A DNA stretch of 43,602 bases from Candidatus Gastranaerophilales bacterium (lineage in GTDB: Bacteria; Cyanobacteriota; Vampirovibrionia; Gastranaerophilales; Gastranaerophilaceae), in NCBI GenBank assembly GCA_947624665.1, contig CANQLK010000001.1, forward strand, positions 1-43,602, given 5' to 3'. Each line of letters begins with the position of its first letter. The stretch's first letter is position 1. This document shows positions 7,866-41,301 of this stretch, in pieces. Under the pieces are notes generated by a model that ran no database searches, was not told the DNA's origin, and saw only the letters and a program-made list of their open reading frames with translations. The position numbers and the translations under genes are program-made.

Positions 7866-7871
7866 ATTTTA

Positions 7872-8372: not shown

Positions 8373-8380
8373 TTTTACCT

Positions 8381-9022: not shown

Positions 9023-9024
9023 TT

Positions 9025-9342: not shown

Positions 9343-9351
9343 AATCTAAAC

Positions 9352-12732: not shown

Positions 12733-12901
12733 AAATATTAAAAACGGTAATATTTATTACCTGTTAAGAGAGGATATAATAAACTGTACAAATGCCAATG
12801 ACAATCAAATTATGGTGCTTTATAAAAGTTTAGAACACCATGATATGCTTTTTGTCAGAGAAAAAGAAGAATTTTATAATAAATTTGTTGCCGTTGAGTA
12901 A
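12713..12901 (+). CDS. DUF1653-like small protein
   Basis: 62 aa. KNGNIYYLLREDIINCTNANDNQIMVLYKSLEHHDMLFVREKEEFYNKF recalls the DUF1653 pattern (YxHYKG..Y...........E.lVvYr.L.....lwvRP...F). The start overlaps the methyltransferase 3' end by 20 nt. Confidence 0.5.
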   Translation: MSFKKFKNIKNGNIYYLLREDIINCTNANDNQIMVLYKSLEHHDMLFVREKEEFYNKFVAVE

Positions 12902-12939
12902 CTTTTTTTTAATCTAGTGGCGCAAATCTTTATCAGAAA

Positions 12940-12968
12940 GAGAAACAGAGATGATAACTCTGTTTCTC
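12940..12968. terminator. bidirectional terminator-like hairpin between convergent genes
   Basis: Perfect 11-bp stem GAGAAACAGAG / CTCTGTTTCTC with a 7-nt loop. Lies between the DUF1653 stop (12901) and the stop of the minus-strand gene (12994). Confidence 0.6.
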
Positions 12969-12993
12969 AAACAAAATAAATGGAATAATTTTT

Positions 12994-13824
12994 TTATTCT
13001 TCATCCATAATATCGTCTTTTTTAACAAGAATAGTATCGCCGTTAACGAAATAATTACCCGTAAAATCGAAGTAACCTTTATCTTCGGGCAAATTAGTAT
13101 CTTTTTTCCAAACCGCATGTAAATCATTGTATTTTTTTATGGCTTCATCTTTAATATTGAAGAGGTCTTTAAAAGTTTCAACGTTAATTCTGGCATAGGG
13201 CTGATTTTCACCGTTTTCATCGGTGAAATCAAAAAGGAAATATACTTTATCGCCGTCTGTATATGTTTTTGCAACGTGTTGTTGAGCATCCTGTTTCTCT
13301 TGTAAATCTTTTACTTTTGATTCAATTTCATCTCTCTTTTTTGAAGACAGATGAGAATTATATAATTTGTCAACCAGTTTATCTATTTGAGGTTGAATAC
13401 AATCATATTCCGTAGGGATTTTCAATTCGCCGTTTTTGGTGAATTGCAATTTTCCGTCTTTTTCATTAAAATCTCTGATTATATCTTCATCGCAATCGTA
13501 TTGTTCTGCGAGTTCACTTAATGTTGTTTCAGCGGGACTGAATTTAACTTTAACAACGTCATTTTTTTTATCCAAAACGGACATTCCGCCGTTTATTGCC
13601 AATGCTGTAGCCAATCCTGCAATAAAGCCTTTTACGGTAGCACGTGATTTCTTATGATTATTTGTTCTACGTGGATTTCTGCTTGATTCTGACCTTCTGC
13701 TTACATATTCATCTCTTTGTGATGTTCTTTGATGAGTTTGCACACGATTTGAAGATGATGTTCTTCTGTTTGTATGTTTGTATTTATCATCTATACCCTT
13801 AAAGGTAATTGGTGTTATATTCAT
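12994..13824 (-). CDS. single-pass membrane protein: very basic Arg/Ser-rich N-terminus, possible LysM-like segment
   Basis: ATG at 13824 follows an AAGGAAGG RBS. One TM (GFIAGLATALAINGG). VVKVKFSPAETTLSELAEQYDCDEDIIRDFN is LysM-like. No family was recognised with certainty. Confidence 0.5.
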   Translation of the reverse strand: MNITPITFKGIDDKYKHTNRRTSSSNRVQTHQRTSQRDEYVSRRSESSRNPRRTNNHKKSRATVKGFIAGLATALAINGGMSVLDKKNDVVKVKFSPAETTLSELAEQYDCDEDIIRDFNEKDGKLQFTKNGELKIPTEYDCIQPQIDKLVDKLYNSHLSSKKRDEIESKVKDLQEKQDAQQHVAKTYTDGDKVYFLFDFTDENGENQPYARINVETFKDLFNIKDEAIKKYNDLHAVWKKDTNLPEDKGYFDFTGNYFVNGDTILVKKDDIMDEE

Positions 13825-13920
13825 ATTTAACCTTCCTTTTGTTTTTGTTAAAAACAATAAATATTTACAATTGATATTTAATAAATTAACATTTACATAA
13901 TGTAATATTTTTTAACAGAA

Positions 13921-21376: not shown

Positions 21377-22057
21377 ATGAAATTAATGGAAAAGTTAAAA
21401 AAAGAAGTAATAATATCTGTGCAGGCAATGCCTGACGAACCTTTATATGATGAAGTTGCATTAACTGCGATGATGAAATCGGTAATAAACGGAGGTGCAA
21501 AAGGTTTAAGGCTTGCAGGTGCAAGAGATGTAAGAAATGCTAAAAAACTCTTTGATGTACCCGTAATCGGGCTCACAAAACCTGATAAACTGCCTGATAA
21601 TTGGAAAGATATTGTCTATATAACTCCGACTCTCAAAGAGGTTAAGGAATTAATATCGGCAGGTGCGGATATTATAGCGACAGATGCAACACAACGCCCA
21701 AGACCAAAAGAAAGCTTAGCGGAAATTCTTAATTATATTAAATCGGCAGGAAAATTAGCCATGGCGGATATATCAACCTTTGAAGAAGGTATAAAAGCTC
21801 GTGAACTCGGTTTTGATATAATTTCCACAACTCTGTCGGGGTATACTCAATATTCCGTCTTAGAAGATGATAAACCTGATTTTAAGCTTCTTGAAAAGCT
21901 TACAACAAGACTCGACTGCCCCGTTATACTCGAAGGCAGAATTTGGTTTCCTGAAGAAGTAAATAGAGCATTTGATTTAGGAGCTTATTCCGTTGTAATA
22001 GGTTCTGCGGTTACAAGACCTCAATTAATAACAAAAAGATTTTGTATAAGGAATTAA
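21377..22057 (+). CDS. nanE: N-acetylmannosamine-6-phosphate 2-epimerase
   Basis: 226 aa, collinear with E. coli NanE as recalled (ISVQA.PD.PL, VPVIGL.K, AGADIIA.DAT.RPRP, LAMADIST.EEG, GFDIISTTLSGYT). Confidence 0.88.
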   Translation: MKLMEKLKKEVIISVQAMPDEPLYDEVALTAMMKSVINGGAKGLRLAGARDVRNAKKLFDVPVIGLTKPDKLPDNWKDIVYITPTLKEVKELISAGADIIATDATQRPRPKESLAEILNYIKSAGKLAMADISTFEEGIKARELGFDIISTTLSGYTQYSVLEDDKPDFKLLEKLTTRLDCPVILEGRIWFPEEVNRAFDLGAYSVVIGSAVTRPQLITKRFCIRN

Positions 22058-22059
22058 AA

Positions 22060-22974
22060 ATGAAAAAAGCACTTGCTATAGATGTAGGCGGTACTAAGCT
22101 TGTATATGCCGTTATAAATGAAAAAGGCGAATTTTTAAGTGAAGTTAAAAAAACTTTTACTCCCCAAAAAATTGATGAACTTGAAAAAGTATTTAAGCAA
22201 ATAATAAAAGAAAATGAAAACGAAGTTGATATAATAGCATTTGCAACGGCAGGCGCCATAAATCTAGAGAATACAAAAGTTGAATCTTCCACGCCTAACA
22301 TGCCCGATGGCTATAACAGTCTTGATTTTTCGAGGTTAAGCAAAAAACCCGTATATGTAGAAAACGATGCGAATGCGGCAGCCTGGGCGGAATATAAAAT
22401 CGGAGCCGCAGCAGGTTGTGAAAATAATATAACAATTACGCTTGGTACAGGAATAGGCGGCGGATTTATTGTTGAGGGCAGACTGCTTAGAGGAAAATCA
22501 GGCAGAGGCGGTGAAGTCGGCAGTATGAAAATAAACGGCAGAGACAGAATATGCACCTGTCATAGAAAAAACTGCTTTGAAAGCTATGCCTCAGGTGTCG
22601 GACTTAAAAAAACAGCGCAGGAACTTGCCGAAAATGATTTATCTTTTAAAAACAGCTTATTTTGTTCCAAATCGCCACAAGACGTAACCACTTACGACAT
22701 TATAAACGGATTAAAACAAAACGATGAATATTGCATTAAAGTTTTTAACATTTGGAAAAATGATTTAATTACGGGGTTAATAAATATTACAAATATCTTT
22801 GATACCGAAACGATTGTTATATCAGGCGGAATGGGTGAATTTATAAATACGGAAGAAATTCAAAATGCAGTAAATGCAGAAATTGTCGTATCTCCCGTTA
22901 AAATTAAGCAGGCAAAGGCAGGCAATTATTCGGGCATGATAGGAGCTGCGCTTTTAGCATGCACTAAATATTAA
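22060..22974 (+). CDS. ROK-family sugar kinase (likely N-acetylmannosamine/glucose kinase)
   Basis: ATG at 22060 follows an AAGGA RBS and lies 2 nt after the nanE stop. Motifs: AIDVGGTK ATP motif, ENDANAAA, GTGIGGG, and the Zn motif CTCHRKNCFESY. Confidence 0.85.
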   Translation: MKKALAIDVGGTKLVYAVINEKGEFLSEVKKTFTPQKIDELEKVFKQIIKENENEVDIIAFATAGAINLENTKVESSTPNMPDGYNSLDFSRLSKKPVYVENDANAAAWAEYKIGAAAGCENNITITLGTGIGGGFIVEGRLLRGKSGRGGEVGSMKINGRDRICTCHRKNCFESYASGVGLKKTAQELAENDLSFKNSLFCSKSPQDVTTYDIINGLKQNDEYCIKVFNIWKNDLITGLINITNIFDTETIVISGGMGEFINTEEIQNAVNAEIVVSPVKIKQAKAGNYSGMIGAALLACTKY

Positions 22975-23481: not shown

Positions 23482-24180
23482 ATGACAAGAAATCAGCTCC
23501 CTGAGGGTGTAGGAAAAAAGATAGTTGAAGCATTAAAAAGACAAGCAGAAGCAGACATTACACCTGTTGATACTTCAGAAAATAAATTTGATACAAATAT
23601 TCCTTTAACCGATATAAAAGATTTACCTGAAATTAATACCGATAATGTTGAAGTAATTTCCGATACAAACGATAATATAATTATTGAAGAAGAATCTTCT
23701 AATATTGAATTAAACGAACAGGTACAAAATAAAGAACCCGTGATAGATAAGAAGGAACAATCGGTAATGGAAAATCCTGTATTTAATACTTTTACACAAC
23801 CTAAAACTTCATCGTATATAAATCAACCGATAAAGTCAAATGAAGAAACTTATACAAATGCACCGATAAGTATACCTGCAAATGTAGCAATTTTGAAAAA
23901 CCTGATATCATCTTTACCTGTCGGAGTTACAAAGCAAACAGGCGCCCAAATTATAAGACAAACATTAGAAGCTATGGGATTACCTATGAACAGCGTTTTA
24001 AAAGAAGCTCAAGATATTCAGGAACAATTAAACAGTTCTACAAGAGAGTGCATGCTCAAAATTCAAGAATATAAAACCAAAATTTTACAGCTTGAACAAT
24101 CCGTTCAGGAATATCAAAAGAATATTACTCAAATAAATGATTTAGTAAGCTTATTCTTGTTAACCGACAGAAAACAGTAA
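23482..24180 (+). CDS. hypothetical protein (acidic low-complexity N-half, C-terminal coiled coil)
   Basis: 232 aa ORF with an AGAGGTGA RBS, followed by a terminator. No family recognised. Confidence 0.5.
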   Translation: MTRNQLPEGVGKKIVEALKRQAEADITPVDTSENKFDTNIPLTDIKDLPEINTDNVEVISDTNDNIIIEEESSNIELNEQVQNKEPVIDKKEQSVMENPVFNTFTQPKTSSYINQPIKSNEETYTNAPISIPANVAILKNLISSLPVGVTKQTGAQIIRQTLEAMGLPMNSVLKEAQDIQEQLNSSTRECMLKIQEYKTKILQLEQSVQEYQKNITQINDLVSLFLLTDRKQ

Positions 24181-24320: not shown

Positions 24321-25454
24321 TTATTTCTTTGTAATTTTATTATCTTTAATTTCAAATATTTCAACGTTATTGAGGTATTCTTCTCTGAAATTAAGGGTAT
24401 CAACCGAGGTTATTATGGTCTGAGTATTATCATCAATAGCATTTAAGAGATAATTTTGCCTGTAATCATCCAATTCTGCCAAAACATCATCGAGCAAAAG
24501 CACGGCATTAACATTGATTTTTTCTTTTATTAAAGCTAATTCGGCAAGCTTTAGAGCCAATACAATGCTTCTTTGCTGACCTTGCGATGCATATTTTTTT
24601 GCTTCAAAATTATTAATTAAATATGATACATCATCCCTGTGAGGCCCTGTTATACTTTGACCTCTTATTATTTCTTCGGCTTTCTTTTCTTGAAGTTCTT
24701 TTGTGAAACAGCTTAAAATATAGTCATTATTGTGTTCAAACTTCTTTTCCGCTGATATATCGCCAATAATTGATGAATTATATATAATCTCTAAGTTTTC
24801 TGTATCGGAGATTTGTTTATGTTTGATTTTGGCTATTTTTTGCAATTCATAAAGAAAATTCAATCTTATAAAAATAATGTTGCTGCCCGTTATAGCCAGC
24901 TGTTCGTTCCAGATATCAAGCAGCGAGGTATCTGCATTAATATTTCCTTTTAAATTTTTAAGGTAATTATTTTTTTGAGTTTTTATTTTGTTATATTTCG
25001 CCAAACGTTCCAAGTAAGCAGGAAAAATCTGGCATATTGCTATATCAAGCCATTTACGTCTGTCGTCGGGGCTGCCTCTTAATAACAGTAAATCATTGGT
25101 CGTAAAACAAACCGTCGTTATATTGCTTATAAATTCCGATGATTTATTTTTATTAAGTCCGTTTACTTTTAGCTTCTTTCTGTTCGGCGGATTTATCGTA
25201 ACTTCTATATCCGTTTCTATATCGTATTTTTCCGTAACCGCTTTTATATTACATATTTGCTCATTCCATTTTATAAGTTCGTTATCATTTTTTGCTCTGA
25301 AAGAGTCTAACGAGGACAAATAGTAGATTGCTTCAAGCAAGTTTGTTTTTCCCTGCGCATTTTTTCCTATAAAAAGTATTTTCTGCGAATTAAAATCAAT
25401 TGATATATCCGCATAATTCCTGAAATTTTTTATCTCTAATCTTTTTATAAACAT
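24321..25454 (-). CDS. recF: DNA replication and repair protein RecF
   Basis: 377 aa. Walker A GKNAQGKTNLLEAI, signature SQGQQRS, Walker B LLLDDVLAELD. Confidence 0.92.
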   Translation of the reverse strand: MFIKRLEIKNFRNYADISIDFNSQKILFIGKNAQGKTNLLEAIYYLSSLDSFRAKNDNELIKWNEQICNIKAVTEKYDIETDIEVTINPPNRKKLKVNGLNKNKSSEFISNITTVCFTTNDLLLLRGSPDDRRKWLDIAICQIFPAYLERLAKYNKIKTQKNNYLKNLKGNINADTSLLDIWNEQLAITGSNIIFIRLNFLYELQKIAKIKHKQISDTENLEIIYNSSIIGDISAEKKFEHNNDYILSCFTKELQEKKAEEIIRGQSITGPHRDDVSYLINNFEAKKYASQGQQRSIVLALKLAELALIKEKINVNAVLLLDDVLAELDDYRQNYLLNAIDDNTQTIITSVDTLNFREEYLNNVEIFEIKDNKITKK

Positions 25455-25539
25455 AAACTTATTATATATGATTTAAAAATTAAATAAATAATAGACTTAG
25501 AATTAAAATCTGATAATATATTAATATAGAGAGTTGAAA

Positions 25540-26157
25540 ATGTATAAAGAAAAAATTATAGAAATAGGGAAAAGGTTATATTTAAAGAATTTAACGATTG
25601 GGACATCGGGAAATATCAGCATTCGAAGTGATGAAGGGATATTTATAACGGCTTCGGGTACGGCGCTTGGAAATTTAACACCAGATGGAATAGTTTTGAT
25701 AAATTATGAAGGTAAAGAAATAATAGGAGGTAAAGCCTCATCCGAAAAAATGCTCCACACGGAAATATACAAAAGAAGACCCGATATAAATGCCATAATT
25801 CATACGCATTCTGCTTATCTGACAACTTTTGCTTCGTGTCATAAAGCATTAAATGAACCTATAATGTCAGAAAATATATTATATTTTGAAGAAATCCCCG
25901 TTGCGCCTTATGCTATGCCCTCATCAGCAAAATTAGTTGAAAATACCGCAGAATTTATTGAAAATCATGATGTAGTTATGATGGCAAACCATGGTGCCGT
26001 TGCTTGTGCAGATAATATTGAAAATGCTTTCTTGAAAATGGAAACGGCTGAATATTATGCTCAAGTCACTCTTAATACAAAGATTTTAGGCGGAGCAAAA
26101 TTCCTTTCCGATAACGATATTAAAGATTTAATAAATTTAAAAAATAATATTCATTAA
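25540..26157 (+). CDS. class II aldolase/adducin-family protein (L-fuculose-phosphate aldolase-like)
   Basis: 205 aa. Motifs GTSGNISIR and IHTHS...ANHG. ATG at 25540; the track TTG at 25534 is less likely. Confidence 0.8.
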   Translation: MYKEKIIEIGKRLYLKNLTIGTSGNISIRSDEGIFITASGTALGNLTPDGIVLINYEGKEIIGGKASSEKMLHTEIYKRRPDINAIIHTHSAYLTTFASCHKALNEPIMSENILYFEEIPVAPYAMPSSAKLVENTAEFIENHDVVMMANHGAVACADNIENAFLKMETAEYYAQVTLNTKILGGAKFLSDNDIKDLINLKNNIH

Positions 26158-26180
26158 ATTAGAAAAATAAAAATACGGTT

Positions 26181-28505
26181 ATGAAAAATGTAATAGGATA
26201 TGTTCATACTCATTGGGATAGAGAGTGGTACAGGGAATTTGAAGAATTCCGCCTGAGGCTTATTGAGGTTTTTGATAATATTTTATTTATGCTTGAAAAA
26301 GGCGAACTGCCTTCGTTTTATTTTGACGGTCAGACCTGTGCTTTAGAGGATTATTTAGAGATATATCCGAATAAAAAAAATTCGGTTAAGAAGCTTGTAA
26401 AAGAAAAGAAGTTAAGAATAGGGCCTTTTTATTGTTCGGCTGACAGTTTGCTTGTTTCAGGCGAGTGTTTATGCAGAAATTTTGAGATGGGAATAAATAT
26501 AGCTAAAGAATTCGGGGAAACTGATTTTTTGGGATATTTGTCGGATACGTTCGGGCATAGCCGTTGTATGACTTATATATTTAAATATTTTAATATTGAT
26601 AAAGCTTGTGCATGGCGGGGATTAGGAAATTATAATGCTGATTTACTTTGGGACGGAATAAAACTGACTAATTTAATTCAAGGGTATTATCAGGATTTTC
26701 TTAATTCAAATCAGACTATTGAAAAAAAAGCCGAAAATTTAAAAAAATATCTTGATAAGATAGCCGCAAAAAGCTCTGATAACGTTCTTTTGCCTATTGG
26801 CGGCGACCATTTGGCAGCTGCTAATAATCTGAATGAACAAATTAATGAACTGAATAAAATTTATAAAGACTATAAAATAAAAATTTCTTCGCCGTTTGAG
26901 TATTTTGACAAAATTAAAACAAGAGAAAAAATTTCGGGTGAGTTTTTGGAAAACAGTTTGAACTTTATTTTACAGGGAGTATATTCGTCAAGAATATATG
27001 TAAAACAGGCAAATGCTAAATCTCAATGGCTTTTAAGCCGTATAGCAGAACCTTTGCAGGCTTTATCACATTTATATTACGATACTAAAAACCGCCAAAA
27101 CGAAATTGATTATGCTTATAAAACTTTAATTAAAAATCACGCTCACGATTCTATTTACGGGTGCAGTATTGATGAAGTTATGCAAGAGGTTATGAACAGA
27201 TATAATAAGTGTGATTGTGTATCTCAAGGTGTAATTAAAAGAACTTTAAGAGATTTATCCGATGAGGGTTCTTCTTTAAGTGTTATAAATCTTTCTAATT
27301 TTAAATACTTTGGCAGGATTGTTGTAGAAACCGAAAAAACTCTTCCAAAGTGGATGAGAGCTGTCAAGATTTCTTCAAAATCCGCTTTCACAGATAAGAA
27401 ACTTTATAATATTAATGATATTCCAATAACGGAAGATATTACAAAGATAAATACCTATTTAATTGATGTCAAAAATATTGATTCTTTTTCTTTGAAAAAA
27501 ATAGATAAAGATAATATTTGCAAAGAAAATTATTTAACGGCTTCAAATAATTTTATCGAGAATAAATATATAAAGCTTGAAATAAAAAACGGCAAAATTA
27601 TCGTAACCGATAAAAAGAAAAATGAGAAATATCATGATTTTATAAAAATATCAGATAGAGCAGATATCGGCGACAGCTATAACTTCGGGCCTTTGAAAAA
27701 TGATAAGGAATTAAATGCGGAAATAATTTCATTCAAACTGAAAGAAAAAAATCATCAAAGAGCAATATCAGAGATTAGATATGCTGTTTTAATTCCTTTA
27801 AATTCGGATAATAAAGGCAGAAATAAGACTTGTAATAAATGTATTATAACGGTTAATGCAATACTTTATAATCAGTCGGAAATGCTTGAATTTGAATTAA
27901 ACTGGATAAATAAAAGCAAAAATCACCTTTTAAGCATAGGGTTTAATTTAAAAGAAAAAATTAAAAGCACAATAAGCGAGGATTTATTCGGCACCGTAGA
28001 AAGGGAATTTAACGCTGATTTTGATATATATGAAAAAATTCCAGCACCGAAGGGAAAAGAATTAAAAACCAATACGGCGCCTATGCAAAGGTTTGTAAAT
28101 GCTCAAAATGTAACGATATTTACAAAGGGCAACAGTGAATATGAAGTCAAAAAGAATACGTTAAATATAACACTATTAAGGGCAACGGGAATCATATCCA
28201 ATCCGAAAAACCCGTCAAGAGGCACAAGTGCAGGCCCGCCTCTTAAAACTCCCGAGCTTCAATGCATAGGTAAAAATCATTCCGAATTGGCTATCGCTTT
28301 TGAAAATGAAACATATAATCTTTTCAGATTGGCTGAAGAATTTTATATGCCTTATTTGACTTTGTTTACTGATAAAGGAGATAAAAAATTCCTTGATATT
28401 AAAGAAAATCAGTTTGTTTATTCGGTTAAAATCGGACGGGATAAAAATATATCAGGACGAATATTTGATTTTAAATCAAAAGAAATTAAAAATATTACAT
28501 ATTAA
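26181..28505 (+). CDS. glycoside hydrolase family 38 alpha-mannosidase (mannosylglycerate-hydrolase-like)
   Basis: 774 aa. N-terminal HTHWDREWY motif. Further matches at GPFYCSADSLL, DTFGH and HDSIYGCS. Confidence 0.85.
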   Translation: MKNVIGYVHTHWDREWYREFEEFRLRLIEVFDNILFMLEKGELPSFYFDGQTCALEDYLEIYPNKKNSVKKLVKEKKLRIGPFYCSADSLLVSGECLCRNFEMGINIAKEFGETDFLGYLSDTFGHSRCMTYIFKYFNIDKACAWRGLGNYNADLLWDGIKLTNLIQGYYQDFLNSNQTIEKKAENLKKYLDKIAAKSSDNVLLPIGGDHLAAANNLNEQINELNKIYKDYKIKISSPFEYFDKIKTREKISGEFLENSLNFILQGVYSSRIYVKQANAKSQWLLSRIAEPLQALSHLYYDTKNRQNEIDYAYKTLIKNHAHDSIYGCSIDEVMQEVMNRYNKCDCVSQGVIKRTLRDLSDEGSSLSVINLSNFKYFGRIVVETEKTLPKWMRAVKISSKSAFTDKKLYNINDIPITEDITKINTYLIDVKNIDSFSLKKIDKDNICKENYLTASNNFIENKYIKLEIKNGKIIVTDKKKNEKYHDFIKISDRADIGDSYNFGPLKNDKELNAEIISFKLKEKNHQRAISEIRYAVLIPLNSDNKGRNKTCNKCIITVNAILYNQSEMLEFELNWINKSKNHLLSIGFNLKEKIKSTISEDLFGTVEREFNADFDIYEKIPAPKGKELKTNTAPMQRFVNAQNVTIFTKGNSEYEVKKNTLNITLLRATGIISNPKNPSRGTSAGPPLKTPELQCIGKNHSELAIAFENETYNLFRLAEEFYMPYLTLFTDKGDKKFLDIKENQFVYSVKIGRDKNISGRIFDFKSKEIKNITY

Positions 28506-29886: not shown

Positions 29887-30345
29887 TTATTTCTTAGTAT
29901 AAAATTTTTCGGATAATTCTTGTCTGATATTATTAACATAAATATGTTCAATAGGAGAATTATCATCTTTTCTAAGGTAAACGTCTTTTATGCCTGCTTG
30001 AACAATAAATCTTTTGCAGAGTATACAAATAAAGTTATGGCCAAAAATATACATAGTAGCATCTTTGCAACGGTCTTGACCTGCCTGAATTATAGCATTT
30101 TGCTCTGCGTGAATGCTTCTGCAAGTTTCATATCTTGTACCTGATGGAATATTATTTTCCATTCTGAAACATTGCCCCAGTTCATAGCAAGAAACAACCT
30201 TAGACGGAGTCCCGTTATATCCCGTTGCTTTTATTTTTCTGTCTTCTCCTACAATCACCGCTCCAACTTGAGCTCTTAAACAATTCGACCTCGATGCACA
30301 CGTTTTTGCTATTTCAAGAAAATATTCATTCCATTCTTTTACCAT
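29887..30345 (-). CDS. dCMP deaminase (ComEB/Dcd-type cytidine/deoxycytidylate deaminase)
   Basis: HAEQNAI and a C..LC Zn motif. ATG at 30345 (MVKEWNEYFL...) follows an AGGGG RBS. The longer track ORF adds an implausible N-terminus. Confidence 0.88.
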   Translation of the reverse strand: MVKEWNEYFLEIAKTCASRSNCLRAQVGAVIVGEDRKIKATGYNGTPSKVVSCYELGQCFRMENNIPSGTRYETCRSIHAEQNAIIQAGQDRCKDATMYIFGHNFICILCKRFIVQAGIKDVYLRKDDNSPIEHIYVNNIRQELSEKFYTKK

Positions 30346-30419
30346 ATAAACCCCTATTCTTTTCTTATAATACATAATTTCATAATAAGTAACAATAATT
30401 GTAAAGTATTTAAACATAA

Positions 30420-31388
30420 ATGCTTTTTTTAAACTACAATAAAGATATGAATAGCAATTTTGATATAAAAGATGAAAAAGAAAAGACTTGGATAAGTATT
30501 ACAGGCTATAGAGCTCTTTTAATATTAAGAATACTTTTAAATGAAAGTTGCTCGTCTAAAGAACTGATTGAAAAATTAAGAAAAAATCCGATATTAGCAA
30601 AATCAACCTCTAAAGATACCATAATGACAAGCATAAATTCTTTAAAGGCAGCAGGATGTATTTTTACAAGACCGACAAAAGCAAATAATTATCAATATAA
30701 ACTTTTAAGTCATCCTTTTATTTTAAATTTAACTCCCGAAGAAATTGATAAACTTATTGTTATCAGAGAAAACATTGCTAAAGAACTCAACCTTAAAGAA
30801 ATTTTTGATATGAACGGTTTGTATGAAAAAATTTCAGATTTAACTTTTAATGATGAATATAAATCAAAAATCGAAAATTCAAAACCTTTAAAATTTATAA
30901 GTAATGAATTATTCTCAATAATTTCAAACCCTAACATAATTAATAAAAAACTTTTAATAACATATAATTCACCAAAGTTCGGACGAGAAGAATTTGAGAT
31001 TGTACCGCAAAAAATTATTTATGAAAATCAAAAAGCATATATATGGTGCTACAATTGCAAATACGAAAGTTTAGGATTAATTAATATTGAAAGAATATTT
31101 GAAATAAAAGAAATCAGCTCGAATGATAATTTTGAAGCGCCTAAAATATATGAAGTAATTTATGAAATATTTGGTGATTCAATTAATGATTTTGAACTTC
31201 AGGAATATGAAGAAATTATATCTGAAACAGAAGATAAAATAACCGTAAAAGCATTCGTAAATAATGAATTCCTTTTTATTCAAAGAATTTTGTTATTTGG
31301 AACTAGTTTTAAAATTATATCACCCGCATTCTTTAAAGAAGTGCTTATCAATAAAATCAAACTTATACAAAAAGGATATGAGCAATGA
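30420..31388 (+). CDS. HTH-WYL-WCX transcriptional regulator, paralog 1
   Basis: N-terminal winged HTH (RALLILRILLNESCSSKELIEKL...INSLKAAG). Central WYL-like barrel (LLITYNSPKFGREEFEIVPQKIIYENQKAYIWCY). C-terminal WCX-like block (FIQRILLFGTSFKIISPAFFKE). The start is ambiguous (30420 or 30447). Confidence 0.7.
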   Translation: MLFLNYNKDMNSNFDIKDEKEKTWISITGYRALLILRILLNESCSSKELIEKLRKNPILAKSTSKDTIMTSINSLKAAGCIFTRPTKANNYQYKLLSHPFILNLTPEEIDKLIVIRENIAKELNLKEIFDMNGLYEKISDLTFNDEYKSKIENSKPLKFISNELFSIISNPNIINKKLLITYNSPKFGREEFEIVPQKIIYENQKAYIWCYNCKYESLGLINIERIFEIKEISSNDNFEAPKIYEVIYEIFGDSINDFELQEYEEIISETEDKITVKAFVNNEFLFIQRILLFGTSFKIISPAFFKEVLINKIKLIQKGYEQ

Positions 31389-32299
31389 CAAATTTAGAAA
31401 AAAATCATGAAACGGCACTAAGAATTTTAGAAATTTTAAAAATACTTCTTGCCGATAATGCTTCAAAAGATGAAATTATTGATAAGCTAAAAATACACTC
31501 TGATATTGGAGATGTCGGTTCTTATGAAGCTTTTATAAAATATTTTAATACACTTAATTTATCAGGACTTACTATAGAAAGAAACAAAAAAAAATATTGT
31601 TTAAAAAACTCTGTTATTCAAGCTTCTTTATCCGAAAGAGAAAAAAATATAATTATTAAACTGACTGATTATATCGGAAAATTAGGCAATAAAACGGTTC
31701 GTGATATATCAAAACGTTTCTTTTTTAAATTAGATAAATTTATTGATATCGATTTAACGGAATTTACGGATAAAAACATTGAATTAAACGACAGAAATCT
31801 GACTTTAAATATAAAAAATAACAAGTTAATAACTTTAAAAAAAATGTTGGAAGAAGATTTTAAAGTATGTTTGACTTATAGAAAAAAGAACGGAGAAACC
31901 GAATCCGTTACTACGGAATTAAAAAAAATTACCGAAACAAAAAATAATGCATATATAGTTTGTTATGACAGTGTTTTAGGACGAAATCAAAAAATAAATG
32001 TTGATTCTATAATATCAATAAACCAAAATCCCCAAAAAAAGAGCGGAATGAATTATTTAAATTCGGTTATATTTGAACTCTACGGCAGATTGGCTTCTTC
32101 GTATAAATTAAAACCTTCGGAAAAAGCTTTAAAATTCGGACATAATTTTATTACGGTATCAAACAGTGAAGAAGATAAAGAGTCTTTACTGTTACGATTA
32201 TTAAAATACGGTGAAAATTGTAAAATTATCAGACCATCATATATTCAGGAAGAATTTTTGGATATGACAAATGTAATTCTAAAAAATTTGGAGTCATAA
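31385..32299 (+). CDS. HTH-WYL-WCX transcriptional regulator, paralog 2
   Basis: Same three-part layout: ALRILEILKILLADNASKDEII, then VCLTYRKKNGETESVTTELKKITETKNNAYIVCY, then LLLRLLKYGENCKIIRPSYIQEEF. ATGA start/stop overlap with paralog 1. Confidence 0.7.
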   Translation: MTNLEKNHETALRILEILKILLADNASKDEIIDKLKIHSDIGDVGSYEAFIKYFNTLNLSGLTIERNKKKYCLKNSVIQASLSEREKNIIIKLTDYIGKLGNKTVRDISKRFFFKLDKFIDIDLTEFTDKNIELNDRNLTLNIKNNKLITLKKMLEEDFKVCLTYRKKNGETESVTTELKKITETKNNAYIVCYDSVLGRNQKINVDSIISINQNPQKKSGMNYLNSVIFELYGRLASSYKLKPSEKALKFGHNFITVSNSEEDKESLLLRLLKYGENCKIIRPSYIQEEFLDMTNVILKNLES

Positions 32300-32300
32300 T

Positions 32301-33674
32301 ATGTCAAAAATTGTTTTTATTCCTATAGATAACAGACCTGTATGTTATGAGTTACCAAAATTAATTATTAATCAGGCAAAAGAACACGAGCTTTTTATGC
32401 CCGACAAAAAATTACTTGGTTCATTGATTAAAAATGCTGATATAAAAGGTATTTTAGATTGGCTATCTACACTTAATAATATGGATATAGCAATTATTTC
32501 GCTTGATACGATTGCTTATGGCGGACTAATTTCATCAAGAAGAACATCCGATTCATACAGTGTGATAAAAGAAAGAATTGATAAACTTATCGACATTTTA
32601 AATAGAAAAAGTATCAAAGTTTTTGCCTTCTCAAGTATTATGCGAATATCAAACAACAATATTAACGAGGAAGAAAAAGACTATTGGAGTTTATACGGCA
32701 AAAAAATATTTGAATACTCATATAACCTTGATAAAGAAGGATTTTCCGATACTTTAGGCATAAGTGATGATGTAATAAAAGATTATATTGAAACAAGAGA
32801 GCGGAATTTTGAAATAAATAAGTACTATATAGAACTAAAAAAGCAAAATATCTTTGATACATTGGTATTTTCAAAAGATGATTGTGCTAAATACGGGTTA
32901 AATGTAAAGGAAGCAAGAGAGTTAAAAATATTATCGGAAGGTATAGAAGGAATTTATGTAAAAACAGGAGCCGATGAAATCCCTCTTTCGCTTTTATCCC
33001 GTGCTGTGAACAGAAATAAGAAAATAAAAATAGCACCTGTATATACAAACCCGAATAGTATTGAAAAAATATCAAAGTATGAAGATATATCGGTAAAAGA
33101 GTCAGTTAAATCACAAATAGAGCTTACAGGCGGTATCGTATCAACGGAAAGTGACTGTGATTTAATTATGCTTGTTAATAATTTTAAAAATGAACAGGGT
33201 GAACTTGTCATGGGAGTTGAAGAACCTTTATATAAAGGGGATTTAAAACTTACCGATAAGCCTTTTTTTGCTGTTGACATTTTAAATGCAAACGGAGCGG
33301 ATAACAATTTTGCAAAAGCTGTTTTAAAACAGGATTTTAAGAGTTTTTACGGATACAGTGCTTGGAATACTACGGGAAATTCTTTAGGCGGAGGACTTAG
33401 TGCTGCTTTAACTTATTTTAAATCCGTAAAACCCGATAACTCGGCATTTAAAAAACTTCAAACCGTTCGTTTCCTTGATGATTGGGCATATCAGGCTAAT
33501 GTTCGCAGTTTAATCAGAAATGATTTTCAAAATCTGACAAATGGTAGAATTAATGAAGAAATGAGAAAGTTTGAGCAAATTATTTTTAATAAATTCGGAT
33601 TAAAAAATCCCAAAATAAAATATTTGTTTCCATGGAACAGATTTTTTGAGATTGATATAATATTATGTGAGTGA
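32301..33674 (+). CDS. DUF4127-like protein, function unknown
   Basis: 457 aa. N-terminal IPIDNRPVCY and later blocks LDTIAYGGLISSRR, GADEIPLSLLSRA, NANGADN, YSAWNTTGNSLG and FPWNRFFE match my recollection of the DUF4127 family. Starts 2 nt after the paralog 2 stop, behind a GGAG RBS. Confidence 0.55.
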   Translation: MSKIVFIPIDNRPVCYELPKLIINQAKEHELFMPDKKLLGSLIKNADIKGILDWLSTLNNMDIAIISLDTIAYGGLISSRRTSDSYSVIKERIDKLIDILNRKSIKVFAFSSIMRISNNNINEEEKDYWSLYGKKIFEYSYNLDKEGFSDTLGISDDVIKDYIETRERNFEINKYYIELKKQNIFDTLVFSKDDCAKYGLNVKEARELKILSEGIEGIYVKTGADEIPLSLLSRAVNRNKKIKIAPVYTNPNSIEKISKYEDISVKESVKSQIELTGGIVSTESDCDLIMLVNNFKNEQGELVMGVEEPLYKGDLKLTDKPFFAVDILNANGADNNFAKAVLKQDFKSFYGYSAWNTTGNSLGGGLSAALTYFKSVKPDNSAFKKLQTVRFLDDWAYQANVRSLIRNDFQNLTNGRINEEMRKFEQIIFNKFGLKNPKIKYLFPWNRFFEIDIILCE

Positions 33675-33711: not shown

Positions 33712-35493
33712 ATGGAAAAGAATAACGAAACTTTGCATATATTAAGGCACTCGGCTTCTCATATAATGGCACAGGCTGTACAAAAATTGTTTCCGACGGC
33801 AAAGCTTGCCATAGGTCCTGCCATAGACAACGGATTTTATTATGATTTTGATTTGGAAGGACACTCCTTTACCGAAGAAGACTTGGCTAACATCGAAGCC
33901 GAGATGAAAAATATTCTTAAACATAATCTTACTTTTGAAAAATATCAAATTCCTGACGTACAAAAACAAATAGATGAATTTAAAGCTCAAGGTGAAATAT
34001 ATAAAGCGGAATTATTGGAAGAACATAGAAATGACAATCCTACTTTATATTTAACAAAAGATAAAGACGGAAATGTTTTATTTAATGACTTATGCTCAGG
34101 GCCTCACGTTCCAAACACCACATTTATTAAAGGTAATGCAATAAAATTACTGAAAGTTGCAGGTGCATACTGGAGAGGCAGTGAGAAAAACAAAATGCTT
34201 CAAAGAATATATGCAACGGCATTTTGGAATAAAGAAGATTTGGAAAAATATTTAAATTTTCTGGAAGAAGCACAAAAGCGTGACCATAGAAAACTGGGAA
34301 GTCAGCTTGATTTATTCAGTGTAAGAGAAGAAATCGGAGGCGGGCTTGTTCTTTGGCATCCGAATTTAGCCGTTGTCAGAGAAGAAATTGAAAATTACTG
34401 GAGATCGGAACATAGAAAAAGAGGTTATGTAATTGTACATTCTCCTCAAATCGCAAAATCAAAATTATGGGAATTATCGGGGCACATTGACCACTATAGA
34501 GAAAATATGTTCTTTATACAAAAAGACAGCGAAGAAGATGAACAATATATAGTTAAACCGATGAACTGTCCGTTCCATATAATGATATATCAGGCAAACA
34601 GACATTCATACCGCTCATTACCGTTAAGAATGGCAGAACTTGGAACCGTATACAGACGTGAAAAATCAGGTGCACTATCAGGTTTAACACGTGTACAAGG
34701 TTTTACTCAGGATGATGCGCATATTTTCTGCACACCGGAGCAACTTGTTGATGAAATTAACGCTATTATTGATTTTGTAGCGGATACAATGAAAATATTT
34801 AATATGAGTTTTGAAGTAGAACTTTCAACCCGCCCCGAAAGCTATGTCGGCGACCTTAAAAATTGGGAATTGGCAGAAGCAGGTTTAAAAGAAGCTATGG
34901 ACAAGCGTGGTATGCAATATGAAATAAATGAAGGCGACGGTGCATTCTACGGGCCTAAAATCGATTTTAAAGTAAAGGATGCAATAGGCAGAACTTGGCA
35001 GTGTGCTACTATCCAACTTGATTTTAACCTACCTGAAAGATTTGAAATAAAATATCAGGATAAAGACGGTCAAATGAAAACTCCTGTTATGCTTCATAGG
35101 GTTATTTTCGGTTCAATGGAAAGATTTCACGGCATTTTAATTGAACATTATGCGGGCGCTTTCCCAATATGGCTTGCTCCGACTCAGGTTTGTGTTGTTC
35201 CTATTTCGGAACGTCACAACGATTATGCTAAACAGGTTTATGATAAACTGTTTGCAGCAGGTATTAGGGTAAATCTTGACGACAGAAATGAAAGTATGAA
35301 TTATAAAATCCGTGAAGCTTTGCAGGATAAGAAAATTCCTTATGTACTTGTTATGGGAGATAAAGAAATAGAAAATAATCAAGTATCAGTAAGAATTAGA
35401 GGTATCGGCGAGGCAGGATGTACTTCACTTGATGATTTTATTCAAAAAGCTTTAACTAAAATCAGTTCTAAATCTGCGGATTTAAGTTTGTAA
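33712..35493 (+). CDS. thrS: threonine--tRNA ligase lacking the N-terminal TGS domain
   Basis: 593 aa. Starts at the editing-domain motif LRHSASHIMAQAV (equivalent to about residue 66 of E. coli ThrS). Class II motifs are present: PMNCPFH, RVQGFTQDDAHIF, GAFYGPKIDF and HRVIFGSMERF. Confidence 0.95.
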   Translation: MEKNNETLHILRHSASHIMAQAVQKLFPTAKLAIGPAIDNGFYYDFDLEGHSFTEEDLANIEAEMKNILKHNLTFEKYQIPDVQKQIDEFKAQGEIYKAELLEEHRNDNPTLYLTKDKDGNVLFNDLCSGPHVPNTTFIKGNAIKLLKVAGAYWRGSEKNKMLQRIYATAFWNKEDLEKYLNFLEEAQKRDHRKLGSQLDLFSVREEIGGGLVLWHPNLAVVREEIENYWRSEHRKRGYVIVHSPQIAKSKLWELSGHIDHYRENMFFIQKDSEEDEQYIVKPMNCPFHIMIYQANRHSYRSLPLRMAELGTVYRREKSGALSGLTRVQGFTQDDAHIFCTPEQLVDEINAIIDFVADTMKIFNMSFEVELSTRPESYVGDLKNWELAEAGLKEAMDKRGMQYEINEGDGAFYGPKIDFKVKDAIGRTWQCATIQLDFNLPERFEIKYQDKDGQMKTPVMLHRVIFGSMERFHGILIEHYAGAFPIWLAPTQVCVVPISERHNDYAKQVYDKLFAAGIRVNLDDRNESMNYKIREALQDKKIPYVLVMGDKEIENNQVSVRIRGIGEAGCTSLDDFIQKALTKISSKSADLSL

Positions 35494-40185: not shown

Positions 40186-41301
40186 ATGCTTTTTACAATA
40201 GATAAAGATTCTTTATTAAATAAATTAAAAATAGTTGAAAAAGTAACAGCTCAAAGAGGAAATGTACAGCCTGTACTATCAAATGTATTATTTGAAGCAA
40301 AAGAAAATACTCTAAACTTAAGTGCAACGGATTTGGAAATATCCGTAAAAGCAAAAACAACGGTAGCAGTTAAAAAAGAAGGTGCAATAACACTTCCTGC
40401 AAAGAAACTTTTGGAAATAGCAGCAAAATTACCTGATAAACCCGTTGAATTTGCATTAAATGAAGATACAAATATTGTAAATATAGTATGCGGAAACTCT
40501 AAATTTGAACTGATAGGAATTTCTGCTCAGGAATTTCCGAAAAGCGATGATGAAATACAAGACGGAACCGAGATAGAAATTGAAACCGAACCTTTATTGA
40601 AATCAATAAAAAATACGGTTTATGCAGCTGCTAATTATGAAAACAGAAATGTTATTTCGGGTGTATTTTGTTTAATAAAAGATAATAAACTTGAAATGGC
40701 TGCAACCGACGGTAACAGGTTAACAAGAATTATTGAAGCTATTAAAAATAAAGATTCTAAAACCGCTAAAATTGTTATTCCTTCTAAAACTTTAAATGAA
40801 TTTGTGAGGATTTGTTCTTTTTCTTCTGAAGAAAAAGTTATTTTAATAGTAAGTAAGTCAAAGTTAACAATAAAAACCTTAGGATTTGCAATAAATTCAA
40901 GGTTAATAGAAGGTGAATATCCTCCGTATGAACAGTTGATACCAAAAACTACGGCAAATAATTCTACAATATCAAGAGATGATTTAATACTTGCACTAGA
41001 CAGAGTTTCAACAATGGTAAATGACAGAACGAGTATTGTAAAATTTCTGTTCAGTAATAATAAATTGGTATTAAAAGCAGAAACACCGAATTCGGGAACT
41101 TCTGAAGATGTTATTGATTGCAATTATGACGGAGATGACCTTGCTATAGCTTTTAATTATAAATATGTATTGGATTCCATAAGAACAATGGAAGCAAAAA
41201 ATGTAAAAATAGGATTAAACGGAAGTTTATCGGCAACATTATTTAAACCTGACAGTGAAGAAAATTATATATGTCTTATAATGCCGATACAGATAAGATA
41301 G
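40186..41301 (+). CDS. dnaN: DNA polymerase III beta sliding clamp
   Basis: 371 aa with the typical three-domain length. N-terminal F.I.k..L...L..V......r..iPiL.nvl pattern and C-terminal LIMPIQIR. Confidence 0.93.
   Translation: MLFTIDKDSLLNKLKIVEKVTAQRGNVQPVLSNVLFEAKENTLNLSATDLEISVKAKTTVAVKKEGAITLPAKKLLEIAAKLPDKPVEFALNEDTNIVNIVCGNSKFELIGISAQEFPKSDDEIQDGTEIEIETEPLLKSIKNTVYAAANYENRNVISGVFCLIKDNKLEMAATDGNRLTRIIEAIKNKDSKTAKIVIPSKTLNEFVRICSFSSEEKVILIVSKSKLTIKTLGFAINSRLIEGEYPPYEQLIPKTTANNSTISRDDLILALDRVSTMVNDRTSIVKFLFSNNKLVLKAETPNSGTSEDVIDCNYDGDDLAIAFNYKYVLDSIRTMEAKNVKIGLNGSLSATLFKPDSEENYICLIMPIQIR

Follow-up and report, generated by a model that had tools for sequence, protein, structure and literature searches.

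A lineage-specific pair of WYL-type regulators and a DUF4127 gene in a chromosomal operon of a gut Gastranaerophilales bacterium

The window analyzed in this study, a stretch of 43,602 nucleotides from a Candidatus Gastranaerophilales bacterium, contains three open reading frames on the plus strand, at positions 30420/30447–31388, 31385–32299, and 32301–33674. The first two encode regulators, designated here as WYL-A (313 aa) and WYL-B (304 aa), and the third encodes a DUF4127 protein of 457 aa, which is predicted to be cytoplasmic and has no signal peptide. Alignment with orthologs indicated that the true start of the WYL-A gene is the ATG at 30447 and not that at 30420. The stop codon of WYL-A and the start codon of WYL-B share an ATGA at 31385–31388 (...GAGCAATGACA...), and a single nucleotide separates the WYL-B and DUF4127 genes (TCATAA T ATGTCA, 32299/32301). 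GGA/GGAG-type ribosome-binding sites are found 9–11 nt upstream of the starts of both of these genes. No intrinsic terminator was predicted on the plus strand from 30420 to the threonyl-tRNA synthetase gene thrS (33712–35493, plus strand), which follows the DUF4127 gene after a 37-nt spacer carrying an AAGGGAG ribosome-binding site. The overlapping or 1-nt junctions, together with the absence of a predicted terminator, led us to conclude that the WYL-A, WYL-B, and DUF4127 genes form an operon, and thrS is probably a co-transcribed downstream gene. A gene for a ComEB-type dCMP deaminase (29887–30345, minus strand; 152 aa from MVKEW...; Pfam dCMP_cyt_deam_1, E = 1.5e-20) diverges from the operon. 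With its start at 30345 and that of WYL-A at 30447, the intergenic control region read directly from the sequence is 101 nt long (30346–30446), and the dCMP deaminase gene may share it with the WYL operon. The packing of the three genes and the divergent control region had been described in an earlier reading of the sequence alone (the sequence-only reading), and both descriptions were borne out at the same positions.

The control region displayed a mean column identity of 79% across four orthologous loci. Within it, a 27-nt block (TTCATAATAAGTAACAATAATTGTAAA; 30379–30405) is identical at 25 of 27 positions in the window and the loci L001, L004, and L005, and its core is the near-palindrome ACAAT-N-ATTGT. 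The block is unique within the window, with no matches in 100 shuffles. In the clade of the window, six loci have it 53–59 nt ahead of the ATG of WYL-A; it was not recognizable in the more distant WYL-linked clades. Of 42 exact matches in public metagenomes, four were WYL loci, and the others appear to be chance occurrences. Across the window, the ortholog loci, and the metagenome matches, the block was found as a conserved motif only upstream of WYL-A orthologs. A consensus promoter scan placed a minus-strand −35 element (TTGTTA) inside the block; in this AT-rich DNA, the generic scan performed no better than chance (27 sites against 24.4 expected). Judging from the locus alignment, we regard the block as a candidate operator and/or as candidate back-to-back −35 boxes of the divergent promoters, and it may consist of promoter elements only.

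WYL-A and WYL-B share 25% identity over their full length (BLASTP, E = 4e-13), and profile–profile comparison with hhalign aligned them over 293 columns with 99.8% probability (E = 2.6e-30), so that the sequence-only reading was right to call them paralogs. The motifs AYIWCY and AYIVCY that it had pointed out are present in the two translations. Its proposed profile searches gave a mixed outcome for the regulators. The CRISPR-associated WYL profiles of PADLOC matched both WYL-A (2e-8) and WYL-B (1e-6), and the DUF4127 profile matched the third protein, as described below. However, Pfam WYL (PF13280) scored 15.8 bits with WYL-A, below the cut-off of 21.8, and did not match WYL-B, and no Pfam WCX match was found for either protein of the window. 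Some orthologs carry precomputed PF13280 or PF25583 (WCX) annotations, and NCBI calls several of them "WYL domain-containing protein"; PF25583 was weak or precomputed in P0450, P0461, P0468, and L005, and reached 4.5e-4 for WYL-A of L136.

As this sequence support is weak for the proteins of the window, the WYL/WCX assignment was settled by the structure model. The AlphaFold2 model of WYL-A (pLDDT 86.8) was compared with the PDB using Foldseek, and each of the top 32 matches, with E-values between 2.5e-10 and 4.4e-5, was to DriD, PafBC, CapW, BrxR, or a Cas-related WYL protein; 27 of the alignments were roughly full length. In the model, residues 18–88 fold into three helices followed by a beta element, as in a winged helix-turn-helix (wHTH), and the alignments to DriD, PafBC, and BrxR, which span about 290–338 columns, include this N-terminus. 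A helical linker follows. A five-strand barrel at residues 169–223 corresponds to the WYL domain, and the C-domain of DriD (7tzv) was matched with an E-value of 8.2e-8. The C-terminal WCX domain is indicated by the ortholog PF25583 annotations and the full-length structural alignments. WYL-B aligns to WYL-A from residue 8 onward in hhalign, which takes in the wHTH region, and the recognition-helix region is conserved separately within each paralog. Both regulators are wHTH–WYL–WCX transcription factors with the PafBC-like "class A" architecture; the sequence-only reading had proposed these three domains for both. The WYL-A family is small (78 homologs), and all of the named members are from Gastranaerophilales or an unclassified "bacterium".

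The best matches of WYL-A were structures of DriD (8tpk, 8tp8, and 9pfq; E = 2.5e-10, approximately 335 columns), the ssDNA-activated WYL activator of Caulobacter crescentus, which has the same three-domain layout and size. DriD is, however, encoded by a single gene and acts as a homodimer, whereas the two paralogs described here always occur together. In this respect the locus resembles PafBC, the heterodimeric DNA-damage activator of Mycobacterium and Arthrobacter (9fnd and 6sj9; E = 1.8e-9 to 3.4e-7), which also consists of two adjacent, overlapping, and diverged wHTH–WYL–WCX paralogs, and the analogy drawn to it previously was reasonable. The two systems differ in that PafBC is actinobacterial, no pafA/Pup-proteasome locus lies near the melainabacterial pair (its neighbors are dCMP deaminase, DUF4127, and thrS), and sequence searches with WYL-A and WYL-B matched nothing in the PDB, the similarity being too low. 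PafBC is a heterodimer with an ssDNA ligand and a sigma-adaptation mechanism, whereas the present locus is known from its genes and a predicted fold. In PafBC, R211/R214 of PafB and R201/R204 of PafC form the conserved WYL arginine pair needed for ssDNA binding, of which only the PafB arginines are essential (PMC11804915). HMM alignment to BrxR and column counts showed that WYL-A carries E/K-x-N-S at these positions, so that the canonical pair appears not to be conserved there, and that WYL-B carries R/Q200 and an invariant K203 where canonical WYL domains have RxxR. The WYL domains of the two paralogs thus appear from these alignments to be unequal, as in PafB and PafC, with a basic pair kept in one paralog only.

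The third protein is a full-length member of the DUF4127 family, as previously recognized: residues 4–453 matched positions 1–488 of the 489 in PF13552 (E = 4e-107; score 359 bits, gathering cut-off 27), and it has all 24 of the positions that do not vary among 30 diverse members. Across 127 DUF4127 sequences, 41 positions are invariant, many of them charged or polar. The family is large (1674 clusters at 50% identity), and signal peptides occur in many members. The AlphaFold2 model was confident (pLDDT 93.4, pTM 0.92). The fold search against the PDB, which had been suggested as a way to find a catalytic fold, returned no convincing match (best TM 0.25), and no PDB sequence match was found.

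In Firmicutes and Deinococcus, the DUF4127 genes belong to operons for amino-sugar catabolism, where they are accompanied by nanE, Cof-type phosphatase, ROK kinase, RpiR/MurR, PTS or ABC transporter, GH38, GH20, and nagZ genes. The orders are nanE–HAD–DUF4127–PTS–RpiR in Carnobacterium and Listeria, ROK–esterase–DUF4127–ROK–manA–PTS–nanE–RpiR in Priestia, FAD oxidoreductase–GH38–nanE–DUF4127–ROK–RpiR in Clostridium tertium (similar in Peribacillus), and nagZ–ABC–GH20–FAD oxidoreductase–DUF4127 in Deinococcus. Fusions occur as well: one protein joins DUF4127 to a ROK sugar kinase, and in the Bacillus phages PBC6/BC01 it is joined to an SLH cell-wall-binding domain. The ligand of SLH domains is pyruvylated beta-ManNAc in secondary cell wall polymers (PMC6030368, PMC6081394). 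The DUF4127 proteins of the Firmicutes nan-like operons (nanE, ROK/NanK-type kinase, RpiR/NanR, and transporter) are 25–30% identical to that of the window over the full length, and the window likewise encodes nanE, a ROK kinase, and GH38 within 12 kb. The difference is that DUF4127 is co-operonic with sugar genes and an RpiR regulator in Firmicutes, whereas in the window it lies behind the WYL pair, with the sugar genes 4–10 kb away in other transcription units. Given the amino-sugar operons, the ROK and SLH fusions, the signal peptides, and the nearby nanE, ROK, and GH38 genes, we read DUF4127 as metabolic. We take it for a conserved enzyme-like alpha/beta protein of carbohydrate/cell-envelope metabolism, most likely tied to N-acetylmannosamine-containing glycans, and not for a defense effector; judging from these contexts, it probably acts on ManNAc-containing sugars.

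The sequence-only reading had instead proposed that the WYL pair probably senses a nucleic-acid or nucleotide ligand and controls DUF4127 as its cargo, an undescribed pairing that could be stress- or phage-responsive. Taken as a dedicated sensor/effector module, the pair would sense phage- or stress-derived nucleic acid and turn on DUF4127 as a defense or stress effector. BrxR and CapW, WYL repressors encoded directly upstream of BREX and CBASS, share the architecture of WYL-A and are among its structural matches (7qfz, 9c5g, 7tb5, and 7t8k; E = 2.4e-7 to 4.4e-5). Like them, the WYL pair stands at the head of an operon beside a divergent promoter, both regulators match CRISPR-associated profiles, and the three genes stay together in divergent Gastranaerophilales. 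BrxR and CapW are, however, encoded by one gene each, and here two paralogs lie in a housekeeping neighborhood, upstream of a gene that was not a defense gene in the PADLOC search or the neighborhood comparisons. PADLOC found no match to DUF4127 and no recognized anti-phage system adjoining the pair. Its only matches elsewhere in the window were a Type II methyltransferase 18 kb away and a RecF-like ATPase, besides a weak RT_UG21 match (1.5e-4) on the ORF at 23482–24180; on the dCMP deaminase, its match to a 630-position dCTP-deaminase model was confined to the deaminase part. The genes on either side of the locus are fabF, dCMP deaminase, and thrS, with no defense island, and its base composition is unremarkable. 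In a collection of species genomes, DUF4127 was found in at least 588 matched stretches, mostly without WYL genes, and the neighborhoods compared were sugar operons or housekeeping contexts. Since in these comparisons DUF4127 homologs outside one Gastranaerophilales lineage show no WYL linkage and lie largely in such contexts, the proposal is unsupported, and we consider a new defense or stress effector highly improbable.

The linkage itself is narrow. In a genome scan, the WYL pair was present in four of 80 related melainabacterial DUF4127 loci. Each type of DUF4127 neighborhood maps to one clade, and the WYL-linked loci form one grade. A single Gastranaerophilales lineage has the pair ahead of DUF4127, apparently from one origin: it would have been inserted there once and then inherited vertically, without repeated acquisition, a pattern that speaks against a defense or stress module. 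WYL-A precedes WYL-B in every complete locus examined; the two genes overlap in six loci (ATGA or longer) and are separated by 59 nt in L034. The dCMP deaminase gene adjoins the pair in L001–L005, L114, and L130 and lies two genes away in L034, L044, L072, L090, and L092. The downstream thrS is found in the same order in L001, L004, L005, and L130 but not in the other WYL-linked clades. A WYL-B::DUF4127 fusion on one MAG contig (P0121/L136) is a single A in a homopolymer run away from the normal ATGA overlap and may be an assembly error.

The tight packing of DUF4127 with the pair is uninformative, because DUF4127 is equally tight behind unrelated genes in sister clades. Melainabacterial DUF4127 is a conserved gene packed behind various housekeeping genes such as ilvBN: the gap to ilvN was 0–6 nt in 18 of 24 loci, the overlaps with mntP were −4 to −59 nt in 18 of 20, and a −4 overlap with an M20 peptidase gene was found in all seven. 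Co-transcription of DUF4127 with the WYL pair may thus be without functional meaning. What remains in favor of a local link is that the A–B–DUF4127 trio stays intact in loci whose neighbors on both sides differ, even where WYL-A identity is as low as 33%.

The pair could instead be the melainabacterial counterpart of PafBC or DriD, an ssDNA-activated activator of a dispersed DNA-repair regulon, with DUF4127 and thrS as passengers, as pafA is a downstream passenger of pafBC. DriD and PafBC are the best structural matches, tight junctions seem to be without functional meaning in these genomes, and DNA-metabolism genes recur beside the pair: the divergent dCMP deaminase, mutS2, whose stop codon overlaps the WYL-A start in L079 and L136, and recA in L091, the most distant pair, which forms an A–B–manC–recA operon without DUF4127. 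No regulon was found, however: the window has the exact block at no site other than that ahead of WYL-A, and only four of its 42 metagenome matches were WYL loci. Moreover, the trio is kept as the DNA-metabolism neighbors change, and the canonical ssDNA-binding arginine pair appears to be missing in WYL-A and only partly kept in WYL-B. We consider this explanation rather unlikely.

A local regulator that senses a sugar-derived or nucleotide-sugar ligand (a UDP-/GDP-sugar or cell-wall fragment) and tunes DUF4127, in a role like that of RpiR/MurR, is an unlikely explanation. The pair holds the adjacent-regulator place that RpiR occupies in six Firmicutes operons, and mannose and nucleotide-sugar genes recur in the vicinity: L090 and L091 have manC, L090 also has GH130 and a pyruvyl transferase, L005 has PMI and an NTP-transferase, and the window has GH38. 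To our knowledge, however, no WYL domain is known to have a sugar or nucleotide sugar as its ligand; furthermore, the L091 pair exists without DUF4127, and sister-clade DUF4127 genes have no adjacent regulator at all. WYL ligands are not limited to ssDNA, a c-di-GMP-sensing WYL regulator having been reported (PMC11880434), and WYL-A appears to lack the canonical ssDNA-binding arginines.

The three genes belong to an ordinary operon on the chromosome of a gut bacterium of the Gastranaerophilales (Melainabacteria/Vampirovibrionia), and we favor, at somewhat better than even chances, a lineage-specific WYL pair that autoregulates this operon, in which DUF4127, a probable enzyme of ManNAc-linked glycans, happens to be included. 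WYL-A and WYL-B would most likely assemble as a PafB/PafC-like heterodimer; two separate homodimers are a possible alternative. The heterodimer would bind the conserved 27-nt block in the divergent promoter region and control its own operon, with DUF4127 and probably thrS regulated through read-through, and it may also control the dCMP deaminase gene. By analogy with DriD, PafBC, and CapW, the ligand would most likely be a single-stranded nucleic acid or a nucleotide-like molecule. A bolder variant is that the trio is a functional unit, in which a PafBC-like heterodimer senses a nucleotide-sugar or cell-wall ligand and not ssDNA, and controls DUF4127 as an enzyme of ManNAc wall polymers with a previously unseen fold. 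We regard this variant as distinctly improbable; if it is true, cell-envelope sugar metabolism would have its first WYL regulator and DUF4127 its first assigned function.

The three tightly packed plus-strand genes described in the sequence-only reading were all present as open reading frames: WYL-A (30447..31388, 313 aa), WYL-B (31385..32299, 304 aa), and a DUF4127 gene (PF13552; 32301..33674, 457 aa). As had been described, the stop codon of WYL-A and the start codon of WYL-B share the ATGA at 31385–31388, and a single base separates WYL-B from DUF4127. Ribosome-binding sites were found ahead of the starts of WYL-B and DUF4127. Alignment with four orthologs showed that translation of WYL-A starts from the ATG at 30447 instead of the first in-frame one at 30420, and the dCMP deaminase gene on the opposite strand (29887..30345) starts at 30345 (the protein begins MVKEW...). 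The divergent control region is therefore 30346–30446 (101 nt), in agreement with the earlier proposal. No intrinsic terminator was predicted on the plus strand within the operon or ahead of thrS (33712..35493), which begins 37 nt past DUF4127; the spacer carries the ribosome-binding site of thrS itself.

The paralogy of the two WYL proteins extends over their full length (BLASTP, 25% identity, E = 4e-13; profile–profile comparison, 99.8% probability, E = 2.6e-30). The sequence-level support for WYL and WCX domains in these two proteins is thin. The Pfam WYL profile scored 15.8 bits on WYL-A, under the cut-off of 21.8, and did not match WYL-B; the WYL profiles of PADLOC, a set of defence-system profiles, matched both. 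Sequence and profile searches of the PDB were negative or marginal, the sole match being BrxR (E = 0.22). Some orthologs have Pfam WYL or WCX, and several are named 'WYL domain-containing protein' by NCBI. The predicted structure was decisive. The first 32 PDB matches of the AlphaFold2 model of WYL-A (pLDDT 86.8) comprised only the WYL regulators DriD, PafBC, CapW, and BrxR and a Cas-related WYL protein, with E-values of 2.5e-10 to 4.4e-5, and 27 of them were aligned across approximately the whole length. The global TM scores were low (~0.25), which we attribute to differences of the domain orientations in a three-domain protein; the fold assignment relies on how exclusive the match list is and how much of the protein it covers, not on TM. 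DUF4127 gave a full-length PF13552 match (E = 4e-107). Profile searches and the structure model thus show that the HTH-WYL-WCX and DUF4127 domains had been assigned correctly, and the locus belongs among the known HTH-WYL-WCX regulators.

The WYL-A family is small: a word-indexed search found 78 homologs, and all the named ones are from Gastranaerophilales or an unclassified 'bacterium'. WYL-B directly follows WYL-A in every complete locus examined, and the conserved recognition-helix region is distinct to each paralog. Canonical WYL domains possess an RxxR pair, which in PafBC is required for ssDNA binding (PMC11804915). According to an indirect alignment, the corresponding position is R/Q200 and the invariant K203 in WYL-B and E/K-x-N-S in WYL-A. 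If this indirect alignment holds, the asymmetry would resemble that of PafB and PafC, which play unequal roles. The analogy with PafB/PafC drawn in the sequence-only reading is the best available; to our knowledge, actinobacterial PafBC is the only known paralog pair of the WYL family.

The control region contains a 27-nt block at 30379–30405, TTCATAATAAGTAACAATAATTGTAAA, which is identical at 25 of 27 positions among the window and three related loci (L001, L004, and L005). The block occurs once in the window, and in six loci of the window's clade it lies 53–59 nt upstream of the WYL-A ATG; its core is the near-palindrome ACAAT-N(1-2)-ATTGT. In the more distant WYL-linked clades, the block was not found. 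It could be an operator. Alternatively, it could be two back-to-back −35 boxes, since a promoter scan places a minus-strand TTGTTA −35 within the block. By analogy with PafBC, a WYL activator site overlapping the −35 would make the block both operator and −35.

The same block bears on a different explanation, in which the pair is a PafBC-like global DNA-damage regulator and the adjoining genes are passengers. A search of metagenomes for a regulon using the exact block pattern yielded 42 matches, of which just four were WYL loci, with no sign of a regulon; the other matches were of mixed GC and origin and were taken as chance. A relaxed 17-nt core (AGTAACAATANTTGTAA, ≤3 mismatches) gave 11 sites in the window versus 2.6 expected, most of them intragenic, and this excess may be a composition effect. 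One of the relaxed-core sites, 4829–4845, sits in an intergenic gap. Every locus of the window's clade lacks recA, and hence there was no recA promoter to compare. The most distant WYL pair (L091:5058-9440; 32% identity to WYL-A) heads a manC-recA operon without DUF4127; hipA and a Mu-transposase fragment are located upstream of that pair. We regard a global DNA-damage role with passenger genes as possible and, on balance, unlikely.

The extent of the WYL–DUF4127 linkage was examined by a scan of a genome collection, which found at least 588 DUF4127 relatives. The best 80 were all from Melainabacteria, and the upstream genes were counted in these 80, among which the window's clade is under-sampled because the ranking used a different query. 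The genes upstream of DUF4127 were ilvN in ~24 loci (metK-ilvB-ilvN-DUF4127), a gene for a secreted 232-aa protein in 12, ubiE/2-hydroxyacid dehydrogenase in ~11 (with mntP downstream), and a divergent murD-mraY-murF cluster in five; the WYL pair was upstream in only four of the best 80 (L034, L044, L072, and L079). Within the window's clade (DUF4127 identity of 58–100%), the order is constant, with dCMP deaminase divergent from WYL-A, WYL-B, DUF4127, and thrS. Indirect matching assigned a DUF4127 homolog of apparently the same source to 22 WYL-A homologs. In a neighbor-joining tree of DUF4127, each context type forms one clade, and the WYL-linked loci form a grade beside the ilvN clade. This topology, as a result of sequence comparison, indicates that the linkage had one origin and descended vertically with at least one loss (L019). 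Horizontal transfer was rejected as a specific explanation, because the GC of the WYL genes (24–29%) is inside the range of the adjacent genes and the linkage tracks the DUF4127 tree.

The trio of WYL-A, WYL-B, and DUF4127 persists down to 33% WYL-A identity. The main argument that selection keeps it together is its survival of changes on both flanks. In L090 and L092, the trio has ACT-DUF711-dCMP deaminase upstream and GDPD downstream, the ACT-domain and DUF711 genes lying between dCMP deaminase and the WYL pair (L090:2770-6862 and L092:2743-6865). In L136, mutS2 is upstream and a large serine recombinase gene is downstream of WYL-A and a WYL-B::DUF4127 fusion. Counter-evidence comes from the fact that DUF4127 abuts whatever gene precedes or follows it: the ilvN-DUF4127 gap is 0–6 nt in 18 of 24 loci, the DUF4127/M20 peptidase overlap is −4 in all seven, and the DUF4127/mntP overlap is −4 to −59 nt in 18 of 20. 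A further point against the trio as a selected unit is the L091 pair, which exists without DUF4127. We give little credence to the explanation that the pair is a metabolite-sensing regulator acting locally on DUF4127. The stop codon of mutS2 (MutS_V and Smr domains) overlaps the start of WYL-A at L079 ~6146-6151 and at L136:1562, giving a mutS2-A-B-DUF4127 string in two lineages. The 769-aa fusion (P0121; L136:2496-4805) was found on one MAG contig and was downgraded as Rosetta-stone evidence. It may be an assembly error, because one extra A in a homopolymer run of A restores the usual ATGA overlap, as found in L079.

The DUF4127 family comprises 1674 clusters at 50% identity (E ≤ 1e-3), has members in Listeria, Enterococcus, Clostridium, and Bacillus, and is common across the sampled gut Melainabacteria. 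A comparison of 30 diverse members showed approximately 24 invariant positions, including D10, R12, G74, G75, R80, R115, D194, D225, E226, D326, N331, N356, T357, N360, D394, R402, R447, and E450; many are charged or polar, which points to an enzyme. The fold search that had been proposed to reveal a catalytic fold started from a confident AlphaFold2 model (pLDDT 93.4, pTM 0.92), which shows alternating beta-alpha units with most of the conserved motifs at, or right after, the predicted strand ends, and it found no convincing match among solved structures. The top matches (E ~1e-3) were TIM-barrel sugar isomerases and glycosidases; with TM of 0.2–0.25 and rmsd of 15–19 Å, this fold was not accepted, and the matches count as a hint at most. 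PDB sequence and profile searches found no relative, and no second Pfam family recurred in the 30 diverse members (E ≤ 1). In the literature searched, nothing relevant was found on DUF4127, PF13552, or WYL in Gastranaerophilales, and for GH38/nanE/ROK/RpiR operons there were only papers on the sialic-acid regulator NanR. By eye, many members (P0160, P0165, P0194, P0201, P0202, P0211, P0212, P0214, P0220, P0226, P0238, P0243, P0247, and P0250) have hydrophobic N-terminal extensions resembling signal or lipoprotein peptides. These extensions mean that some DUF4127 proteins, though not the one in the window, are probably exported.

Beyond Melainabacteria, to which all of the best 80 in the scan belonged, the contexts were taken from plasmid records and contig look-ups, and they are consistent and metabolic. 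The gene orders are nanE - Cof-type phosphatase - DUF4127 - lac/cel-type PTS - RpiR in Carnobacterium pCAR50 and Listeria monocytogenes; ROK - esterase - DUF4127 - ROK - manA - PTS - nanE - RpiR in Priestia megaterium; FAD oxidoreductase - GH38 - nanE - DUF4127 - ROK - RpiR in Clostridium tertium; ABC permeases - FAD oxidoreductase - GH38 - ROK/RpiR - AXE1 esterase - DUF4127 - nanE in Peribacillus; and nagZ - ABC transporter - GH20 - FAD oxidoreductase - DUF4127 in Deinococcus. All five Firmicutes operons contain nanE, and in one protein DUF4127 is fused to a ROK sugar kinase. In the Bacillus cereus phages PBC6 and BC01, one gene codes for a full-length DUF4127 domain (26% identity with the window protein, E = 3e-35) and, after it, a C-terminal SLH domain, which matches the SLH of B. 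anthracis Sap at 1e-17. This phage gene (L139:4992-7073 in PBC6; the same in BC01) is annotated merely as 'S-layer domain-containing protein'. In PBC6, the DUF4127 N-terminal motif IPLDNRP is encoded ahead of the annotated start at 5067, so the reading frame there probably begins 75 nt earlier, at 4992. SLH domains bind pyruvylated beta-ManNAc in secondary cell wall polymers (PMC6030368, PMC6081394). The presence of nanE in all five Firmicutes operons, together with the ROK and SLH fusions, suggests that DUF4127 may act as an enzyme on sugars containing N-acetylmannosamine, either releasing or transforming them. Just past the stretches noted in L090 and L092 lie genes for a polysaccharide pyruvyl transferase (PS_pyruv_trans, CsaB-like) and a PfkB kinase; the former is of interest because of the lead from SLH and pyruvylated ManNAc.

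The window itself has nanE (21377-22057), an overlapping ROK sugar kinase gene (22042-22974), and a class II aldolase gene followed by a GH38 glycosidase gene (25534-28505). The nanE, ROK, and GH38 genes, the operon partners of DUF4127 in Firmicutes, are located 4–10 kb upstream as separate units. None of the first 85 loci fetched (L001-L085) had nanE or GH38 within ±8 kb of DUF4127, and only three had a ROK gene in that range. Such clustering was thus rejected as a feature of Melainabacteria, and its absence from these loci, apart from the three ROK cases, means that their closeness to DUF4127 here may be due to chance.

There was no sign of a defence island around the locus, and the genes throughout the window are housekeeping genes. 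Upstream are genes for an hpt-like PRTase, tilS, flagellar export, rpsA, rtcB, dnaK, nanE, the ROK kinase, a PPIase, a recF-like ATPase, the class II aldolase, GH38, and fabF; downstream are thrS, GT2 glycosyltransferases, a radical SAM gene, dnaN, a GHMP kinase, and pgk. Across the window, PADLOC profiles matched only a Type II methyltransferase 18 kb off, the recF-like ATPase, the deaminase domain of dCMP deaminase, and, weakly, the ORF at 23482-24180 (RT_UG21, 1.5e-4). The RecF/SMC-type ATPase (24321-25454, minus strand, 377 aa) matched MADS mad3 over nearly its full length (6e-27) and AriA, PtuA, and GajA more weakly. It is probably just recF; the gene is not adjacent to dnaN (40186-41301). 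The methyltransferase (11830-12732; MTase_II, 9e-86) is convergent with a 287-aa ORF without a family match (12994-13857), and the two (11830-13857) may be a restriction-modification pair. The flagellar export/switch cluster at 7083-10587 (minus strand; fliR, fliQ, fliP, fliO, and a FliN-domain protein) is consistent with the genome of a motile member of Gastranaerophilales.

The proposal of a previously undescribed sensor/effector or phage-responsive system was not supported. DUF4127 lies in sugar operons in Firmicutes and Deinococcus and behind variable upstream genes in Melainabacteria, the WYL pair was upstream in only four of the best 80 loci, and the window gave no sign of a defence island. 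We consider a defence module highly improbable. The explanation that we favor, by a modest degree of confidence, is that of a WYL transcription factor, specific to the lineage and probably heterodimeric, which would autoregulate an operon that also carries a conserved ManNAc-linked sugar enzyme. If this is true, a false lead is removed, in that DUF4127 would not be a defence effector, and the family of PafBC would gain a divergent WYL pair, probably a heterodimer, from non-photosynthetic relatives of Cyanobacteria. The uncharacterized DUF4127 family is the more useful by-product and a more interesting loose end than the WYL locus: its contexts and fusions (nanE, ROK kinase, RpiR, GH38, and the phage SLH) converge on N-acetylmannosamine metabolism, which offers a testable hypothesis.
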